Assembly (NCBI RefSeq): GCF_048593235.1
Contig: NC_133622.1
Span: 183,954,001 to 184,018,000 of the forward strand
Reading direction: 5' to 3'
DNA length: 64,000 bases
From: Sminthopsis crassicaudata
Lineage: Eukaryota
Numbering within the stretch: the stretch's first letter is position 1; each line of letters starts with the position of its first letter. The translations under genes were made by a program, and so were the position numbers. This document shows positions 5,691 through 56,509 of this stretch, piece by piece. The notes beneath the pieces are model-generated. The model had not been told where the DNA came from. It saw only the letters and a program-made list of their open reading frames with translations, and made no database searches.

Positions 5691-6832
5691 GATGCTGAAT
5701 ATCCTCATTTTATAGACAAAGAAACAGGTTCAGACTGAGTGACTTGCTCAGGATTATTCAATTAGCATGTATCTTAGGCAAGATTAAACTCAGGTTTAAT
5801 TATTGTGCCACTTGATAAATCAGCATGCTTTCAATAGACTAACAAATTTCCCAATACTCACCTGCTCTGAAAAGATAAGGCTCAAATTATTTGTGTGTGT
5901 GTGTGTGTGTGTGTCTGCATGGGTGTGACAGTCACTGAGGGGACTTTGGTGCCTGATGAACACCCCTTCCTTCCTGTGAGGCTCTCTATGTTGCTGACTC
6001 CTGTTCCTTAGGAGTAATAACAGGAAAATCTCCAGGACTTTTGCTTTGCTGACTGAGACTGCTAAGCTAGTGCTTTTGTCTCTTCAGCAGTGCACTCCCA
6101 AAGATATGCGGTCCCTTTGAGAATACCTCTTGAGAGGGGAAATGCAGGAATGTGAGCCTTATGTAGAAGTGGATCTGCTAGTTTGCCAATCCCAAGAGTT
6201 TATCAGCTTTTAGGTCTCCACCCTAGAGAATTTCTGAGTGCATCAGGTGCTTGATCTTTTTTTAAATTAATCAACTAGCTTTTGTTGCTTGTTGGTGATA
6301 CAAAGAGAATAATGAAATAGTCCCAGTCTTATTAAAAGCTTACATTCCAGCCTCTGCATTTTAGGAATCAATTCCTGTAATTCCTGCAAGTCAATTCTTT
6401 GTAATTCCTGTAAGTGAAGATGTTGAACTACAACCGGAGTCTCCCTCCATCTCCTTTTCCTCCTACTAGATTTTGAGGCAGATGAGAACTATATTTGAAT
6501 CTCCATTCAATTTATTAGGTAACGCTTTTTTTTTTCTATAAGAAATCTCAGTTTTCCCCAAATGAAGGTAATATTTCTCTTTGTCATCTTCTGTTATTCC
6601 TTCTCTTCTTCCTCTCCTTGGACAAGTTGAAAGTGCCACAGCTCCTCAAAGAGCCTTACCCTACAACTAAATGGATCAGCAGAAGAATTCTGACTTGCTT
6701 TATTATGATGTGGACCTTTTGGCTCTTTTTGGGACATATTATCCTTTTCTTAGCACTCCTCCCTTGCTAGGGGTTTACTTTATTAGTGCCACACACTATA
6801 AATACCCTATTAGCTTATCTCTACCACCACCA

Positions 6833-15056: not shown

Positions 15057-15658
15057 TATAAGGATGCGGTTCCCGCAAAACAAGAGAAGGGAATTGTAAG
15101 GGCCCTTTAAATGGGCGGCACCACAGTGCAACAGGAGATTTGAGTGGCCTAGAAGTATTCTCTGTGGATATAGGACTGCCCTGTGGGTGGGATCCTGTCC
15201 ATATTGAGATAGCATCGTAATGGGTGACAGCTCTTTCTCTGGTTGGCTGTGTGTGTGACCTCACAGGCCCTTTATAAGTCCACTGCAGACAGCAGTTGCT
15301 CTCTTTAACCTGGCTCCCTAGCCTGGGGTAGCCAACCCAAGCCAAGCTGATGGATAGCCGAGAAGTAAGGAGTTTGGTAGAGAACACGTGGGTCTTCAGA
15401 CCAGGTGTTCACTAGGGAACTGACAAGTCAGGACATTATGTGAGTGGTTATAATAAAGGCTTTTAAGATTACACATGGCTGTTCTTGAGCGTGCTACTGG
15501 TTATTAAACTATAGATTCAAGAGATCGTGGCCAGAGACCGAGAAGGCCTCAGAGGAGGCGAGCCGGGTAGAGTTGACACTGCAAAGATCAGTGGTCAAAG
15601 GTGCTCTGTTGGGCCTACGTCAGACTAGTAATTGTAACTGTCAGGAGGGCATGTTACA
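15057..15658 (+). mobile_element. ERV2-type LTR (15095-15658, TG...CA) with retained PPT/internal stub; same family as 51720-55567
   Basis: Colinear with the reverse complement of the 51720-52295 LTR (roughly 85% by eye); TATA 15271-15278, splice donor GAA|GTAAGG at 15365, AATAAA 15452-15457; TSD caatgg at 15051-15056 and 15659-15664. Confidence 0.92.
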
Positions 15659-51090: not shown

Positions 51091-51719
51091 AAATACTATT
51101 GTTTATCAAACAGCACACCAATAAAAAAAGTATTTTTTGGAAAATACTATACTTTGATCCACATTCAATCTTCACAGTTCTCTCTTTGGATGTAAGTGGC
51201 ACTTTCCATCCCAAGTCTATTATAATTGGCCTGAATCACTTCATTGTTGGAAAGAGCCACATCCATCACAATTGATCATGGAATAATCTTGTTGTTGCTG
51301 TGTATAATGTTCTGTTGTTTCTGCTCACTTCACTTAGCATCAGTTCATGTAAGAACCATCCTGCTGATCGTTTCTTATACAACAATAATATTCCATAACA
51401 TTTATATATCATAACTTATTCAGCCATTCTCCAACTGATGAGCATTCACTCATGTCCGAGTTCCTTCCTACTACAAAAAGGCTGTTACAAATATTTTGGC
51501 ACAAAATTTTCCCTTTTTTACAATCTCTTGGGGATACAGGCACTGTTTGATCAAAGAGAATAATACACAGTTTAATAGCCTTTTGGGCATAGTTCCAGAT
51601 TGCTCCCCAGAATGGCTGGGTCAATTCACAACTCTACCAACAATGTATCAGTGTCCCAACATTCCCTCCAACAATTATCATTATCTTTTCCTGTCTTTTT
51701 ATCTAATCTGAGAAGTATG

Positions 51720-52295
51720 TGTAACGTGCTCTCCTGGCAGTTACAATTACTAGTCTGTCCTAGACCCACCAGAGTACCTTTGACCACTGTCCTTTGCAGT
51801 GTGAGCTCTACCCGGCTCGCCTCCTCTGAGGCCTTCTAAGGTCTCTGGCCACAATCTCTTGAATCTATAGCTTAATAACCGGTAGCGCACTCAAGAACAA
51901 CCACGTGTAATCTTAAAAGCCTTTATTATACCTACTCACATAATGCCCTAGCTGATGCCCTGACTTGTTGGTTCCTGAGTGAACACCTGGTCAGAAGACC
52001 CATGTGTTCACTACCAAAATCCTTACCTCTTTCGGCTACCCATCTTGGCTTGGCCACCCAGGCTAGGAGCCAGGGTGAATAGCACGAGGTTAAAGAGGGC
52101 GGTTGCTGCCTGCAGTGGGCTTATATAGGGCCTGTGAGGTCACACACACAGCCAATCAGCGAGAGAGTCACCCATTACAAAACTATCTCAATATGGCCAG
52201 GATCCCGCCCAAGGGCAGTCCTAATATCCACAGAAATTACTTCTGGGCCTCAATCTCCCGATGCACTGTGTCCGCTCATTTAAAGGGCCCTTACA
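51720..52295 (-). repeat. 3' LTR
   Basis: Matches 54992-55567 except 52080 T/55352 C and 52274 G/55546 A (by eye). Confidence 0.98.
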
Positions 52296-52313
52296 ATTCC
52301 CTTTCTCTTGTTT
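52296..52313 (-). other. Polypurine tract
   Basis: - strand AAACAAGAGAAAGGGAAT immediately before the 3' LTR TGTAAGG. Confidence 0.9.
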
Positions 52314-52422
52314 TGCGGGAACCGCACATCTCACCAAGCTAAACTTTTAGCACCAGCTATAGTTCACTTGATCCATGAGATGACAATGTTATGCCCAAGG
52401 AGGTACAAAGCAGCAGATCAGT

Positions 52423-52467
52423 AAACAGAAGTATGACAATGAGAACCAGGCTCAACAGTGGCCCAAA
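52423..52467 (-). pseudogene. env membrane-spanning-domain remnant
   Basis: - strand FGPLLSLVLIVILLF resembles the gamma-type env GPL(hydrophobic)n helix and lies just upstream of the PPT; flanked by stops/frameshifts. Confidence 0.5.
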
Positions 52468-52681
52468 TGTTCAACCCATTCATCAAAGTCATACTCGAGA
52501 TAATAGGCCAAAGAGATTGGATGCCAATGAGGTAGGATGTCAACACTGAGGTGGGAAGTCAACAAGGTAAAACATCACAATTCTAGTTAACAAATATCAG
52601 TAGGTAGGTTGTCACAATTCTAGTTACATTTATCACAGTTCTAGACCAATTCTAGTTTCTTACAATTTTCTGTTGCACTTT

Positions 52682-52955
52682 TCACACTCCTAGAACAATT
52701 CTAGCTTATCACAATTCTCAATTGCACTTGTCACAATCCTAGAACAATTCTAGTTTATCACAATTCTCAATTGCACTTGTCACAATCCTAGAACAATTCT
52801 AGCTTATCACAATTCTCAATTGCACTTGTCACAATCCTAGAACAATTCTAGCTTATCACAATTCTCAATTGCACTTTTCACAATTCTAGAGCAATTCTAG
52901 CTTATCACAATTCTCTATTGCACTTTTCACAATTCTAGAACAATTCTAGTTTCAC
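52682..52955. repeat. 49-bp tandem array (5 full units + partial; decayed units back to ~52596)
   Basis: tagaacaattctag core at 52691, 52740, 52789, 52838, 52887 and 52936 (exact 49-bp period). Confidence 0.97.
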
Positions 52956-53309
52956 AGGTGCACATAAGCAGTCATGTCCAGTAACATTGTCTCAATAACA
53001 ATGGCAGGTGGGTGTGTTGGTTTTTCACCCACTAATTTAAAAGCATAGTCCTTCAATAGAAAGCATAGGGCAAAGCCTCTTCCCAGGCCACCATATGGCA
53101 AGTGGCCACGGGAGAAGCAAGCAGGCCCATTGTCCATTTACAGTCTTTATATTGCGTATCACCCAAAACAGTCCATTTCAGCTGCAACACTGGAACTGTG
53201 TCTGCTGTCTCTGGTGTCACGGTCAGGAGGGGCATCGCTGCCATCAGCGTCTGAAGGGCTGCGGACATCTGGCTGGTCTCTCTGGACTGTTGTCTGGTCC
53301 TTCTCTTGG

Positions 53310-53432
53310 ATCCCCAAGTTACAAATGTCTCTGGTGGGGATCAACTCTGCTGCTGGATCTGCACCTAGGAAGGAATGTCCCCGGGGCCCAACTTGGGCCT
53401 TTCCAAATGCCATCCAGGCCTTTCCACATCAC
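53310..53432 (-). pseudogene. Betaretroviral integrase C-terminal domain remnant (frameshifted)
   Basis: - strand VMWKGLDGIWKGP, then in another frame RGHSFLGADPAAELIPTRDI; resembles recalled V.WKD...WKGP...WGRG..CV...W.P.R motif. Confidence 0.65.
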
Positions 53433-53548
53433 AGTGGAAACAAAGTTGTTGTCAAAAAAGATTAACAAGTCAGACAAAAGTCAGTCTGTCACTTAGCTGC
53501 ACTTTCTGTGTATGCCTGAAGTGCATTGCTAAGGTAAAATGCAAAGAA

Positions 53549-53680
53549 TTTAAAAATGTAAAACCAAAATAATTTAAAAGTGTAAAACCAAAATAACTTT
53601 AAAATGTAAAATCAAAATACTTTGAAGATGTAAAACCAAAAATGTTTAAAAATGTAAAATCAAAATTTAAAATTGTAAGC
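53549..53680. repeat. 24-bp tandem array (U-rich on the element's sense strand)
   Basis: tgtaaaa at 53557, 53581, 53605, 53629 and 53653 (exact 24-bp period). Confidence 0.95.
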
Positions 53681-53842
53681 AATCACATATCCCAAAATTC
53701 CCTTCTCTTGTTTAGAAGAGAAGATCTTGGGGATAGTCTGTGCAGTAATGACTTTACTAACACTCGGCTATATCCCTGAATTCTTTTGCCTAAAAATCAA
53801 AGTTTGAGTTTCTGATACCGAATTGTACTCCAGGAGTGTGAA

Positions 53843-54868
53843 TCAATAAATCTGATATTTTCCTCCTGGGTCAAAGATCACACACTGTCTATTTATTCTA
53901 GTGATTAAAACAGCAATTTTCCAACCCATTCTAGACATAAACACTGTTTTATAAGTACCCGTAGGGGGTTGGGAAATCAAGCTCACCTGTGGAAGTGGAA
54001 AATCCACGAGGTAAGAAAAGAGGAGTTTCAACTCTCCAAAGACGATCCTAGCAGTTTTACAAGTATAAAACTCCACTCTCTCTAACTGCAAGGTCTTGTC
54101 CCTGTAAGGTTTCTTAGAAATTAACTGAACTGTATTTTTAAAACTTTTCTGATTATAGTCAATACCCCACAATTCCTTTTTGCCTTGGGGCATAAAGCCT
54201 ACTCCTGTCCTTTGAAATGAAGACACAGGAGTTTTAAATGGATTAATGGGCAGTGCTGATGATATTATCGCCCTTCCTTTTCCTCCTCCCCCTTCTCCCT
54301 TGGCCCAAGAAGGTGAGGCAGAGGGAAGAAGAATTGGAAAATTCCCCAAAGGCTGATTTAAAATCAAACCTGAGCTTTGCACATAAAAAGAACTAAACTT
54401 CTTCTCAATGAAAGAGTAATCAATAAATTCCTTAAAACAACAATGCACGAGGTAAACCAACAAAACGCTAAGAAGAATTTCTACAACTGAAATCCATGTG
54501 GTTCGTTTATTTCCTTCCTTAGTTTCAGCCACTGGTTTGAACTCTTCCTGTTCTATCTGTAGTAACCTAGCTTTTTCTTCTTTCTCTAGCTCAATCTGTA
54601 GTTTAACCTGCAATTCCAGCAACTCTTGCTGTGGCATTTTGTACTCTATACTGTCATACATACGCACTAGCTCTAGGTTGCTCCCTCTCCGAGCTATATT
54701 TAATGGGTGTGGGGATAGCCTTCTCGGAGCTTGATTACAAGCTTCCTGCTGTTCTTCAGTGGTGATCTTTGTTAAAAGATCTTCCATCTGGCTCTTTAAC
54801 CTCTTTATATAATAAGCATTATGTTCAGCTGTGTCCTTGAGTCTGATCCCAGATTTACCTGGGTCCAT
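53843..54868 (-). CDS. 341-aa ORF of unknown family in the gag position: coiled coil (aa ~80-110), TM helix (aa ~125-145) followed by Cys-Cys, unknown C-terminal domain
   Basis: Longest uninterrupted ORF in the window; strong Kozak (gcaatATGG) about 100 nt after the PBS; no MG start, MHR or CCHC knuckle. Confidence 0.7.
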   Translation of the reverse strand: MDPGKSGIRLKDTAEHNAYYIKRLKSQMEDLLTKITTEEQQEACNQAPRRLSPHPLNIARRGSNLELVRMYDSIEYKMPQQELLELQVKLQIELEKEEKARLLQIEQEEFKPVAETKEGNKRTTWISVVEILLSVLLVYLVHCCFKEFIDYSFIEKKFSSFYVQSSGLILNQPLGNFPILLPSASPSWAKGEGGGGKGRAIISSALPINPFKTPVSSFQRTGVGFMPQGKKELWGIDYNQKSFKNTVQLISKKPYRDKTLQLERVEFYTCKTARIVFGELKLLFSYLVDFPLPQVSLISQPPTGTYKTVFMSRMGWKIAVLITRINRQCVIFDPGGKYQIY

Positions 54869-54971
54869 ATTGCTTCTCTGTCTTCCCTCTTAAGTGGCGT
54901 TTCTACCGGATCTTTCAGAATCTTAATTCTGAATATTAAATATTTTCAAAACCTGATAATTTCTGATGCGT

Positions 54972-54989
54972 CCACCACGTTGGGCGCCA
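54972..54989 (-). other. Primer binding site, tRNA-Lys1,2 (CUU)
   Basis: TGGCGCCCAACGTGGTGG 2 nt downstream of the 5' LTR; first 15 nt match the canonical Lys1,2 PBS TGGCGCCCAACGTGGGGC. Confidence 0.92.
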
Positions 54990-54991
54990 TT

Positions 54992-55567
54992 TGTAACGTG
55001 CTCTCCTGGCAGTTACAATTACTAGTCTGTCCTAGACCCACCAGAGTACCTTTGACCACTGTCCTTTGCAGTGTGAGCTCTACCCGGCTCGCCTCCTCTG
55101 AGGCCTTCTAAGGTCTCTGGCCACAATCTCTTGAATCTATAGCTTAATAACCGGTAGCGCACTCAAGAACAACCACGTGTAATCTTAAAAGCCTTTATTA
55201 TACCTACTCACATAATGCCCTAGCTGATGCCCTGACTTGTTGGTTCCTGAGTGAACACCTGGTCAGAAGACCCATGTGTTCACTACCAAAATCCTTACCT
55301 CTTTCGGCTACCCATCTTGGCTTGGCCACCCAGGCTAGGAGCCAGGGTGAACAGCACGAGGTTAAAGAGGGCGGTTGCTGCCTGCAGTGGGCTTATATAG
55401 GGCCTGTGAGGTCACACACACAGCCAATCAGCGAGAGAGTCACCCATTACAAAACTATCTCAATATGGCCAGGATCCCGCCCAAGGGCAGTCCTAATATC
55501 CACAGAAATTACTTCTGGGCCTCAATCTCCCGATGCACTGTGTCCACTCATTTAAAGGGCCCTTACA
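54992..55567 (-). promoter_or_regulatory. 5' LTR with CCAAT box, TATA box, internal splice donor and poly(A) signal
   Basis: On -: ATTGG 55424-55428, TATATAA 55393-55399, GAG|GTAAGG donor (GT 55297-55298), AATAAA 55194-55199. Confidence 0.93.
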
Positions 55568-56509
55568 AGTATGAATTGCTATCTCAGAGTTGTTGAATTT
55601 GCATTTCTCTAATCAATAGTGATTTAGAATATTTTTTCATATGACTAAAAATGGTTTCAATTTCTTTATCTGAAAATCATATCCTTTGACCACTTATCAA
55701 TTGGGGAATGGCTTTTATTCTTATAAATTTACCTCAGTTCTCTATGTATTTTAGAAATGAGTTCTTTATCAGAAACATTGAAGGTAATTTTTTCTTTCAG
55801 CTTTCTGCTTTCCTTCTAATCTTGACTACATTGATTTTGTTTGTACAAAAATTTTTAAATTTAGCATGATCAAAACTATCCATTTTGCATTTCATAATGT
55901 TCTCTAGTTATTCTTTGGCTATAAATCCATTTTCACCAATTTGAGAAGCAGACTATCTTTTATTCTTCTGATTAGCTTATAATATCACCCTTTATGTCTA
56001 AATCATGAATCCATTTTGATCTTATCTTGGCATAAGGTGCTAGGTGTTGGTTAATGCCTAGTTTCTGCCATGCTATCTTCCAGTTTCCCCAGCAATTGTT
56101 GCCATATAGTGAGTTCTTATGCCAGAGACTGGAGTCACATACGTTCTTAATAAATACTGGCATTAATTTGTCATTTGTTCACTGAATATGCAGAGAAATA
56201 GCATCCCAGCATCCACTTGTATGCTTCCAGCAATAAGGAACCTACTACTTATCAAAGCTAACTCTTTCTGGCTTGGATTAGCTTCAGTGATTAGGAAGTT
56301 TCTCTAAAATCTATTTCCCTTGCTGCTCTGAGAGTTTGTGAACTCTGAAATTCTTTGATGCTCTGTACAAAAACAGAAAGACTTCAAACACAGGACAAAG
56401 TGAATTTGATAAGGTAATTGATGTTGGGAGAATCTCAAGCTCCTTTCAGTCAATTGAAAGCAGCTAGTTTGAACATATTATAAACTATGGTGCTAAAAGG
56501 ATAATAATT

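Follow-up and report, generated by a model that had tools for sequence, protein, structure and literature searches.

A candidate chimeric, signal-anchored protein encoded by a young non-autonomous class II endogenous retrovirus of the dunnart Sminthopsis crassicaudata

The longest reading frame in a stretch of 64,000 nucleotides of the dunnart Sminthopsis crassicaudata (NCBI RefSeq assembly GCF_048593235.1, contig NC_133622.1, positions 183,954,001 to 184,018,000), which is called the window here and whose own numbering is used throughout, has 341 codons and runs from an ATG at 54868 to a stop at 53843 on the minus strand (ORF341, P0002). This locus raises the question of what such a frame encodes and how it comes to be open next to decayed protease and integrase remnants. 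The first-pass annotation had reported 341 stop-free codons, and these are indeed present, on the minus strand; the plus strand at 53843..54868 is closed by many stops. The chance of such a run is about 2e-11 at the local composition and about 2e-7 across the window, and the peptides that the annotation quoted were all located in ORF341.

The element and its reading frame

ORF341 is the sole long frame of an LTR element that occupies 51720–55567 on the minus strand and measures 3,848 bp (Table 1). That this is a young non-autonomous LTR element is almost certain, and its interior is of class II (ERV-K/ERV2) ancestry as judged by eye from the matches of its pro part and integrase end to MEBrv3. 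From the differences between the LTRs and an assumed 1-3e-9 changes per site and year, the age of the insertion is 0.6-1.7 million years (range 0.07-6.3). The host sequence at the insertion site we take to be an L1 fragment on the minus strand, from its likeness to 47105-48576 and to L1 ORF2. The first 15 bases of the primer binding site are those of the MEBrv1 site and the first 11 those of the MEBrv3 site, and the site is presumably of the tRNA-Lys type. When all six frames of the interior were searched with Pfam, no gag, pol or env family was found, and the integrase remnant gave no match in Pfam or in a homolog search. Outside ORF341, 28-37 stops occur per 515 codons on the strand of the element. 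A purine run at about 53695-53715 was considered as a second polypurine tract and was rejected because it sits within the protease remnant.

Table 1. Features of the LTR element, in positions of the window (aa, residues of ORF341)
Feature	Position	Strand	Remarks
5' LTR	54992..55567	-	576 bp, TG...CA; TATA 55399, AATAAA 55199, donor-like site 55300
3' LTR	51720..52295	-	576 bp, 2 differences from 5' LTR; AATAAA 51927
Target site duplication, 6 bp	55568..55573 and 51714-51719	.	
Primer binding site	54972..54989	-	2 nt behind LTR
Polypurine tract	52296..52313	-	before 3' LTR, read in sequence
ORF341	53843..54868	-	ORF list and translation
aa 1-124, orphan helical coiled-coil-like leader, predicted cytosolic	54497..54868	-	
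aa 125-145, single predicted TM ending in Cys-Cys, predicted type II signal anchor	54434..54496	-	
aa 150-211, probable decayed matrix fragment	54236..54421	-	weak match to MEBrv3 Gag N-terminus by eye
aa 228-337, N-terminal pro part (slip-site region and pseudo-dUTPase)	53858..54187	-	by eye
Ancestral pro frame continued	53790..53857	-	translated in 358-360-aa copies, out of frame in this copy
Decayed protease remnant	53667..53789	-	4 stops in 42 codons; faint TD.P, G..D matches to MEBrv3 protease by eye
24-nt tandem array	53534..53666	.	5.5 copies
Broken integrase C-terminus remnant	53320..53432	-	VMW...WKGP, then another frame, by eye
GT-AG intron	53365..53986	-	used by RefSeq model P0010; donor also by P0007
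49-nt tandem array	52605..52956	.	7.2 copies; 3' untranslated part

An older copy of the LTR family lies at 15057-15658 on the plus strand and is 91% identical over the ungapped columns, with 50 gap columns. It consists, in order, of a 6-bp target site duplication, 7 bases like the start of the LTR, the last ~31 nt of the interior with the polypurine tract, and a whole LTR, and it looks like a provirus whose interior has been almost wholly deleted. It follows from this copy that the LTR family is much older than the insertion at 51.7-55.6 kb. Each LTR of the element has a consensus splice donor about 100 nt past its TATA box (55300 and 52028, minus strand), and solo LTRs could act as alternative first exons by way of these donors. 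The leader RNA folds better than shuffled sequences (z -3.1), which is expected of a retroviral leader and is uninformative on ORF341, and there were no Rfam matches in the window. Elsewhere in the window an AT-rich degenerate repeat family of ~47 nt is present in 7 copies at 44830-45673, and two long overlapping open frames of 248 and 268 aa at 47105-48576 (minus strand), with no Pfam match, read like what we take to be the C-terminal part of L1 ORF2.

ORF341 begins 121 nt past the start of the primer binding site. Its start codon is in the strong Kozak context that had been claimed, with A at -3 and G at +4; the first-pass annotation was silent on four short upstream ORFs of 6, 23, 1 and 14 codons that lie between the TATA box of the LTR and this start, one of whose ATGs is in a strong context. 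The claim of a single transmembrane segment followed by Cys-Cys, with no signal peptide, agrees with the hydropathy of the protein, in which the Kyte-Doolittle 19-residue maximum is 2.34 at aa 126-144, the best window past residue 160 reaches 1.28 and no hydrophobic stretch is found at the N-terminus. The charges that flank the segment are +2 before it and -2 after it, which predicts an N-in/C-out orientation, that is, a type II signal anchor. The coiled coil that had been proposed from a heptad-like pattern stood only in part: in the AlphaFold model of full-length ORF341 there are long helices at 11-45 and 80-109, at low confidence (pLDDT 34.6, too low for its fold search to be meaningful), but the heptad pattern is only moderate, the a/d positions being hydrophobic at 5/8 and 5/9 in the best phases in aa 17-45 and at no more than 4/8 in aa 80-110.

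Origin of the parts of the protein

Harding et al. (2024, PMC11334065) describe MEBrv3 as a class II ERV, IAP-like and without env, that is dominant in the genomes of dasyurids. Its Gag, Pro and Pol sequences, taken from the supplement of that paper, were aligned to ORF341 by eye with all counts made by hand. Residues 252-337 of ORF341 match the N-terminal part of MEBrv3 Pro with 33 identities in 86 positions and 3 gaps, and the matches come in the same order, namely KPY, LQL.R.E.Y, I..GE.K, PP...YKTV, W and RQCV...PG. The long forms of the protein that are found in other copies add 7 identities in 13 positions, which brings the count to 40/99. The raw BLOSUM62 score, computed by hand, is about 109, or 47 bits, and the E value of this match is about 2e-8 in an assumed search space of 341 x 7,000 and about 0.8 against a library of 1.84 billion proteins. 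Because of the latter value it is to be expected that the HMMER search of 1.84 billion representative proteins returned only the dunnart cluster (P0003). Upstream of this match, QGKK (aa 228-231) fits the pro-frame reading of the gag/pro slip region of MEBrv3, the slip run itself being lost here. These alignments make it very likely that residues 228-337 descend from pro.

The echo of dUTPase that the first-pass annotation had heard at the C-terminus was borne out, since KIAVL...DPGG is by eye in register with the motif 3-4 region of the pseudo-dUTPase in MEBrv3 Pro. When compared by eye to the published MEBrv5 Pro, which shows all five dUTPase motifs (for the role of the motifs see PMC4531489), the C-part of ORF341 has none of them, the catalytic Asp of motif 3 included; its motif 3 region is 5 residues shorter than that of MEBrv3, and the region of motifs 4-5 is out of frame in this copy. 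As judged from its sequence, ORF341 is not an active dUTPase and reads as a pseudo-dUTPase behind the position of the gag/pro slip site. The N-terminal domain of MEBrv3 Pro is likewise without the motifs that MEBrv5 shows, and therefore MEBrv3 itself bears a pseudo-dUTPase; a dead dUTPase domain is thus part of the ERV lineage that is most abundant in dasyurids. A keyword search of the main text of PMC11334065 did not return the words dUTPase, non-autonomous or transmembrane. A fold comparison of the C-part, which had been suggested as a check, speaks neither for nor against a dUTPase fold. The C-terminal 110 residues of a long form gave an all-beta single-sequence model with 8 strands and a pLDDT of 41, and this low-confidence model had no significant match to dUTPase in Foldseek or VIA-align (best Z 4.0).

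The likeness to betaretroviral matrix behind the transmembrane segment, also drawn by the first-pass annotation, fared less well. IE...GL...SP.W does fall on the first half of MEBrv3 matrix, in the expected order and place, but the match is weak, with about 9 identities in 36 positions over that half and a hand score of about 20, which is non-significant alone, and no Gag_p10/matrix family was matched in ORF341 by Pfam. On this alignment we lean towards a matrix origin of residues 150-211. For residues 1-149, which hold the helical coil and the transmembrane segment, no match was found. A reading of aa 80-145 as the stalk and anchor of a beta-type Env was rejected, as it had no Pfam support and was unlike MEBrv5 Env by eye. 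Two short motifs of the leader were absent from the supplement of PMC11334065 in a keyword search, and the MEBrv2, most of the MEBrv4 and the gamma clade sequences in that supplement could hold a closer match to the leader. In the MEBrv1 record an unannotated ORF of about 36 codons is seen by eye between pol and env at ~nt 6290-6400; it has a hydrophobic stretch followed by four cysteines, a layout like that of the ORF341 anchor, with no clear homology.

The order of leader, matrix, pro, integrase end, 3' repeats and polypurine tract in the element is the ancestral one. The LTR differs on reading from the published 469-nt LTR of MEBrv3, also by three 8-mers of the LTR and 3' end, and pol is missing here; because of this difference in the LTR, the parent was probably a sister family of MEBrv3. 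The homology is read from a hand alignment to one published sequence, and the Pfam, PDB sequence, ESM Atlas and fold searches lent it no support of their own.

Copies of the frame and its probable maintenance

The relatives of ORF341 form one cluster among 1,609 candidates, which consists of 8 RefSeq proteins of S. crassicaudata named 'uncharacterized LOC' that are 86-96% identical and lie on at least 5 scaffolds. A search for shorter homologs found none among 201 candidates, and ESM Atlas gave no usable match. The sub-threshold Pfam matches to FIN1 and Herpes_UL73, obtained with ORF341, its parts and the six frames, were taken as noise from the coil and the transmembrane segment, and the PDB sequence search gave a single chance row per query. 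A parent integrase was sought with the remnant peptide among 87 candidates and was not found, which is a weak test, and none of 81 pattern matches in viral contigs was confirmed. That at least 8 copies on several chromosome-sized scaffolds are annotated as genes would fit a benefit to the host, in which the protein serves dunnart development or antiviral defence (addiction of the Bik-1/ERNI type, or ERV interference) and host selection keeps the copies. Young multicopy single-ORF ERVs without pol can be needed for development, and Bik-1 copies are about 94% identical, as here (PMC12067270). However, Pfam found no capsid-like domain and the protein searches found no homolog in other annotated marsupials, and we consider this explanation quite improbable.

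RefSeq models usually rest on RNA reads. Two of the 8 models leave ORF341 at one consensus donor (exon end 53987) and one of them continues within the integrase remnant, past a consensus acceptor at 53364; this use of the donor hints at transcription and splicing. The splice joint 53986/53365 was not among the 15 of 160 joints listed, and none of the 23 public runs listed is labelled as RNA on record. The stretch is carried by 22 of these 23 runs (6 organism codes, 11 studies), with 60-70% of the sampled words. In three runs that we guess to be RNA, the listed contigs over ORF341 are ungapped with two exceptions, one of low depth (2 gaps, 26 differences) and one at the start of the frame (8 gaps, run X1), and a 543-nt contig from another organism code differs by 19 substitutions and is ungapped; this comparison covers 40 of 282 variants and 12 of 132 indels. 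In the three runs the LTR and the 3' interior have a greater contig depth than ORF341, depth being no measure of copy number. A contig of run X1 departs from the element at 53779 into 146 other bases, and it possibly comes from a sister subfamily or helper that shares the 3' interior without ORF341.

The 8 relatives were chosen by the annotation pipeline for having ORFs, so that this RefSeq set favors open frames; together with ORF341 they make nine copies. Forms of 358-360 aa are found beside shortened or spliced forms of 301, 307 and 341 aa. Four of the nine (358-360 aa) stay in the ancestral pro frame 22 residues longer, three, ORF341 among them, leave it after K337, and there are two in-frame deletions of one residue, one of which is common to 4 copies. 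The hydrophobic segment is intact in 8/9 copies, the ninth having an Arg within it and being frameshifted. These copies bear on the proposal that the protein is an accessory factor acting in trans like glycoGag, in which the cytosolic coil would engage a host sorting or restriction factor, or helper Gag, and so aid the whole family. The predicted layout, with a leader, then a TM where it meets the putative matrix part, and a type II orientation, is that of glycoGag, and at aa 98-103 all nine copies fit what we take to be an acidic dileucine-type motif, but the Yxxphi motif at aa 71 is missing from 4 of the 9 and 12 shared variable columns fall within aa 1-124. There is no glycosylation sequon anywhere in ORF341, an antagonist acting at entry would be useless to an element without env, and a trans product would be hard to keep in a non-autonomous lineage, as broken copies are helped equally. 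Loss of enzyme activity need not make a dUTPase-like protein dispensable, as BIV shows (PMC4531489). On balance we regard a trans accessory as unlikely.

There are several indications that the frame has been kept open. The first 131 codons of the pro-derived ancestral frame contain no stop; in the 42 codons of the remnant there are 4 (53759, 53756, 53714 and 53669), where 3.2 are expected at random, and the chance that all 4 fall in the protease remnant is about 0.004 when the boundary stop is left out. It is because the adjoining protease remnant in the same frame is full of stops that we take the frame to have been kept open. At 10-20% neutral change a frame of 341 codons stays stop-free with a probability of only 0.006-0.00004, and the long forms terminate where the dUTPase-like domain terminates. 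We consider it likely that the frame is under some selection. The residues behave differently from the frame. Conservation of codons across copies, which the first-pass annotation had put forward as a check, was not observed: of the 15 variants listed in the ORF, 3 are synonymous and 12 non-synonymous, as for neutral change, for which the synonymous share is 0.23-0.29, and hence there is no sign of purifying selection on any part of ORF341, the anchor included. The accessory or restriction-antagonist role that the same annotation had suggested sits badly with this neutral spectrum. Of the 33 residues shared with MEBrv3 Pro, only about 11 are encoded by a different codon by hand count, and 53 of the 86 residues differ; silent sites are thus a long way from saturation even as most residues have been replaced. 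C-terminally shortened forms spread too, and this fresh insertion is one of them. Probably the frame, and probably also the anchor, is kept while the residues drift.

The same observations could be explained at the level of RNA, either because long translation would shield the unspliced RNA from decay or because the frame was inherited from a sister autonomous family, the protein being a short-lived by-product. The neutral-like spectrum of variants, the forms of 301, 307 and 341 aa alongside those of 358-360 aa and the change of amino acids at nearly the rate of silent sites are all in line with this, and in an autonomous Gag-Pro-Pol a dead dUTPase has to stay open anyway. But the protease and integrase remnants are decayed and the derivation from an intact parent is thus not recent, the long forms stop at the domain boundary, and the 450-nt leader resembles acquired coding sequence, with its hydrophobic segment intact. 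We hold an RNA-level device to be somewhat unlikely.

A possible role for the frame and its parallels

The explanation that we favor, to which we give a probability of about 40%, is that ORF341 is a chimeric signal-anchored protein that a non-autonomous class II ERV keeps in cis for docking at the ER and packaging by a helper. By-eye comparison supports that a MEBrv3-related env-less class II ERV would have lost capsid, nucleocapsid and RT by deletion and that the deletions would have put matrix-like and pro-derived sequence in one frame. The stops in the remnants support that this frame was kept open during the decay of the adjoining protease and integrase sequence. The RNA would be transcribed from the 5' LTR and translated past the four upstream ORFs, upon which SRP would capture the segment at 125-145, and the protein would be inserted as type II, its coil facing the cytosol. 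SRP binds an internal signal anchor while it is being translated, and the mRNA is thereby brought to the ER. In this way the nascent anchor would deliver the RNA of its own element to the ER for packaging by an env-less helper ERV, with RT, integrase and capsid supplied by an autonomous partner that has the same LTR. The gain would fall to the RNA under translation, and what is selected would then be an open frame with a hydrophobic anchor and not the exact residues, while the C-terminal end with the matrix and dUTPase parts would be loosely constrained cargo. Because a trans product helps broken copies equally, only benefits to its own RNA should be keepable in a non-autonomous element, and the neutral variants together with the spread of shortened forms fit such cis selection on frame and anchor. 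It has been reported that IAP, when it lost env, acquired an ER signal that reads in frame with Gag (bioRxiv 10.1101/2022.06.22.497016), and that SRP directs Ty1 RNA to the ER while it is translated, a step that nucleates assembly sites, with Gag showing no cis preference for its own RNA (PMC3945221). Since Gag has no such preference, Ty1 backs the targeting of RNA to the ER and not the selfish gain. MEBrv3 Gag, as published, has no hydrophobic N-terminal signal, and for that reason we only infer that the helper assembles at the ER. A stronger form of this explanation, which we find rather doubtful, is that the three-piece gene of a satellite docks its own RNA by SRP at the assembly site of the helper, that its pseudo-dUTPase would be the first one tethered to a membrane and the working end of the protein, and that the family is still inserting.

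What this locus would represent is the assembly of a gene within a selfish element, out of an orphan leader and parts of two retroviral frames. The 'uncharacterized LOC' models probably conceal more genes of this kind, because Pfam, HMMER, ESM Atlas and screens for gag, pol and env miss this one. If targeting in cis is true, it would be a mechanism by which non-autonomous ERVs compete for helper particles. Dunnarts are laboratory marsupials, in which expression, topology and the location of the RNA are testable.

The combination of a TM leader, matrix-like sequence and a pseudo-dUTPase as the sole gene of an active satellite was not found among the open-access papers listed in literature searches, and the element may already bear a repeat name. 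The closest published relative, MEBrv3, is like it in the N-terminal domain of Pro (about 38-40% identical by hand), in faint matches to matrix, protease and the end of integrase that follow one another in the same order, and in having a similar primer binding site and polypurine tract, a 3' tandem array and no env. It is unlike MEBrv3 in its LTR (576 vs 469 nt), in having no capsid, nucleocapsid or RT, and in its extra 450-nt coil-TM leader and its matrix-like and pro-like sequence in one frame with the slip site lost. The parallel with MLV glycoGag (gPr80), which the first-pass annotation had drawn, holds for the predicted layout of a leader, a TM at the junction and then matrix-like sequence, with type II orientation (PMC12530543). 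It does not extend further, as ORF341 has no sequon, starts at an AUG and not at an upstream CUG, is of class II and not gamma, comes from an element without env, and carries pro-derived sequence in place of a full Gag with capsid and nucleocapsid. Mouse IAP likewise belongs to class II, has no env and acquired a hydrophobic segment ahead of Gag and in its frame, but there the signal sits at the N-terminus of a complete Gag that assembles and is flanked by direct repeats, whereas in ORF341 the segment is internal, little of Gag is left and a search for flanking repeats over 16 nt found none. BHIKHARI-1 Gag of zebrafish and ERNI/ENS-1 of chicken, from other retroviral clades and with developmental roles shown, have retained a capsid domain and lack both a TM and a dUTPase part; behind the coil of ORF341 no capsid family was matched, and the space holds matrix- and pro-like sequence. 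The adenovirus E4-ORF1 and herpesvirus dUTPase-related proteins are dUTPase-derived and motif-less and yet are kept. The dead dUTPase peptide of BIV/JDV is likewise derived from a dUTPase, has lost the five motifs and is kept. Unlike these dead viral dUTPases, that of ORF341 is fused behind a TM leader in a non-autonomous endogenous element. Pre-gag ORFs also have precedent (PMC6995185), and each piece of ORF341 is precedented, in pol-less single-ORF ERVs, in TM leaders on Gag, in pre-gag ORFs and in dead dUTPases.
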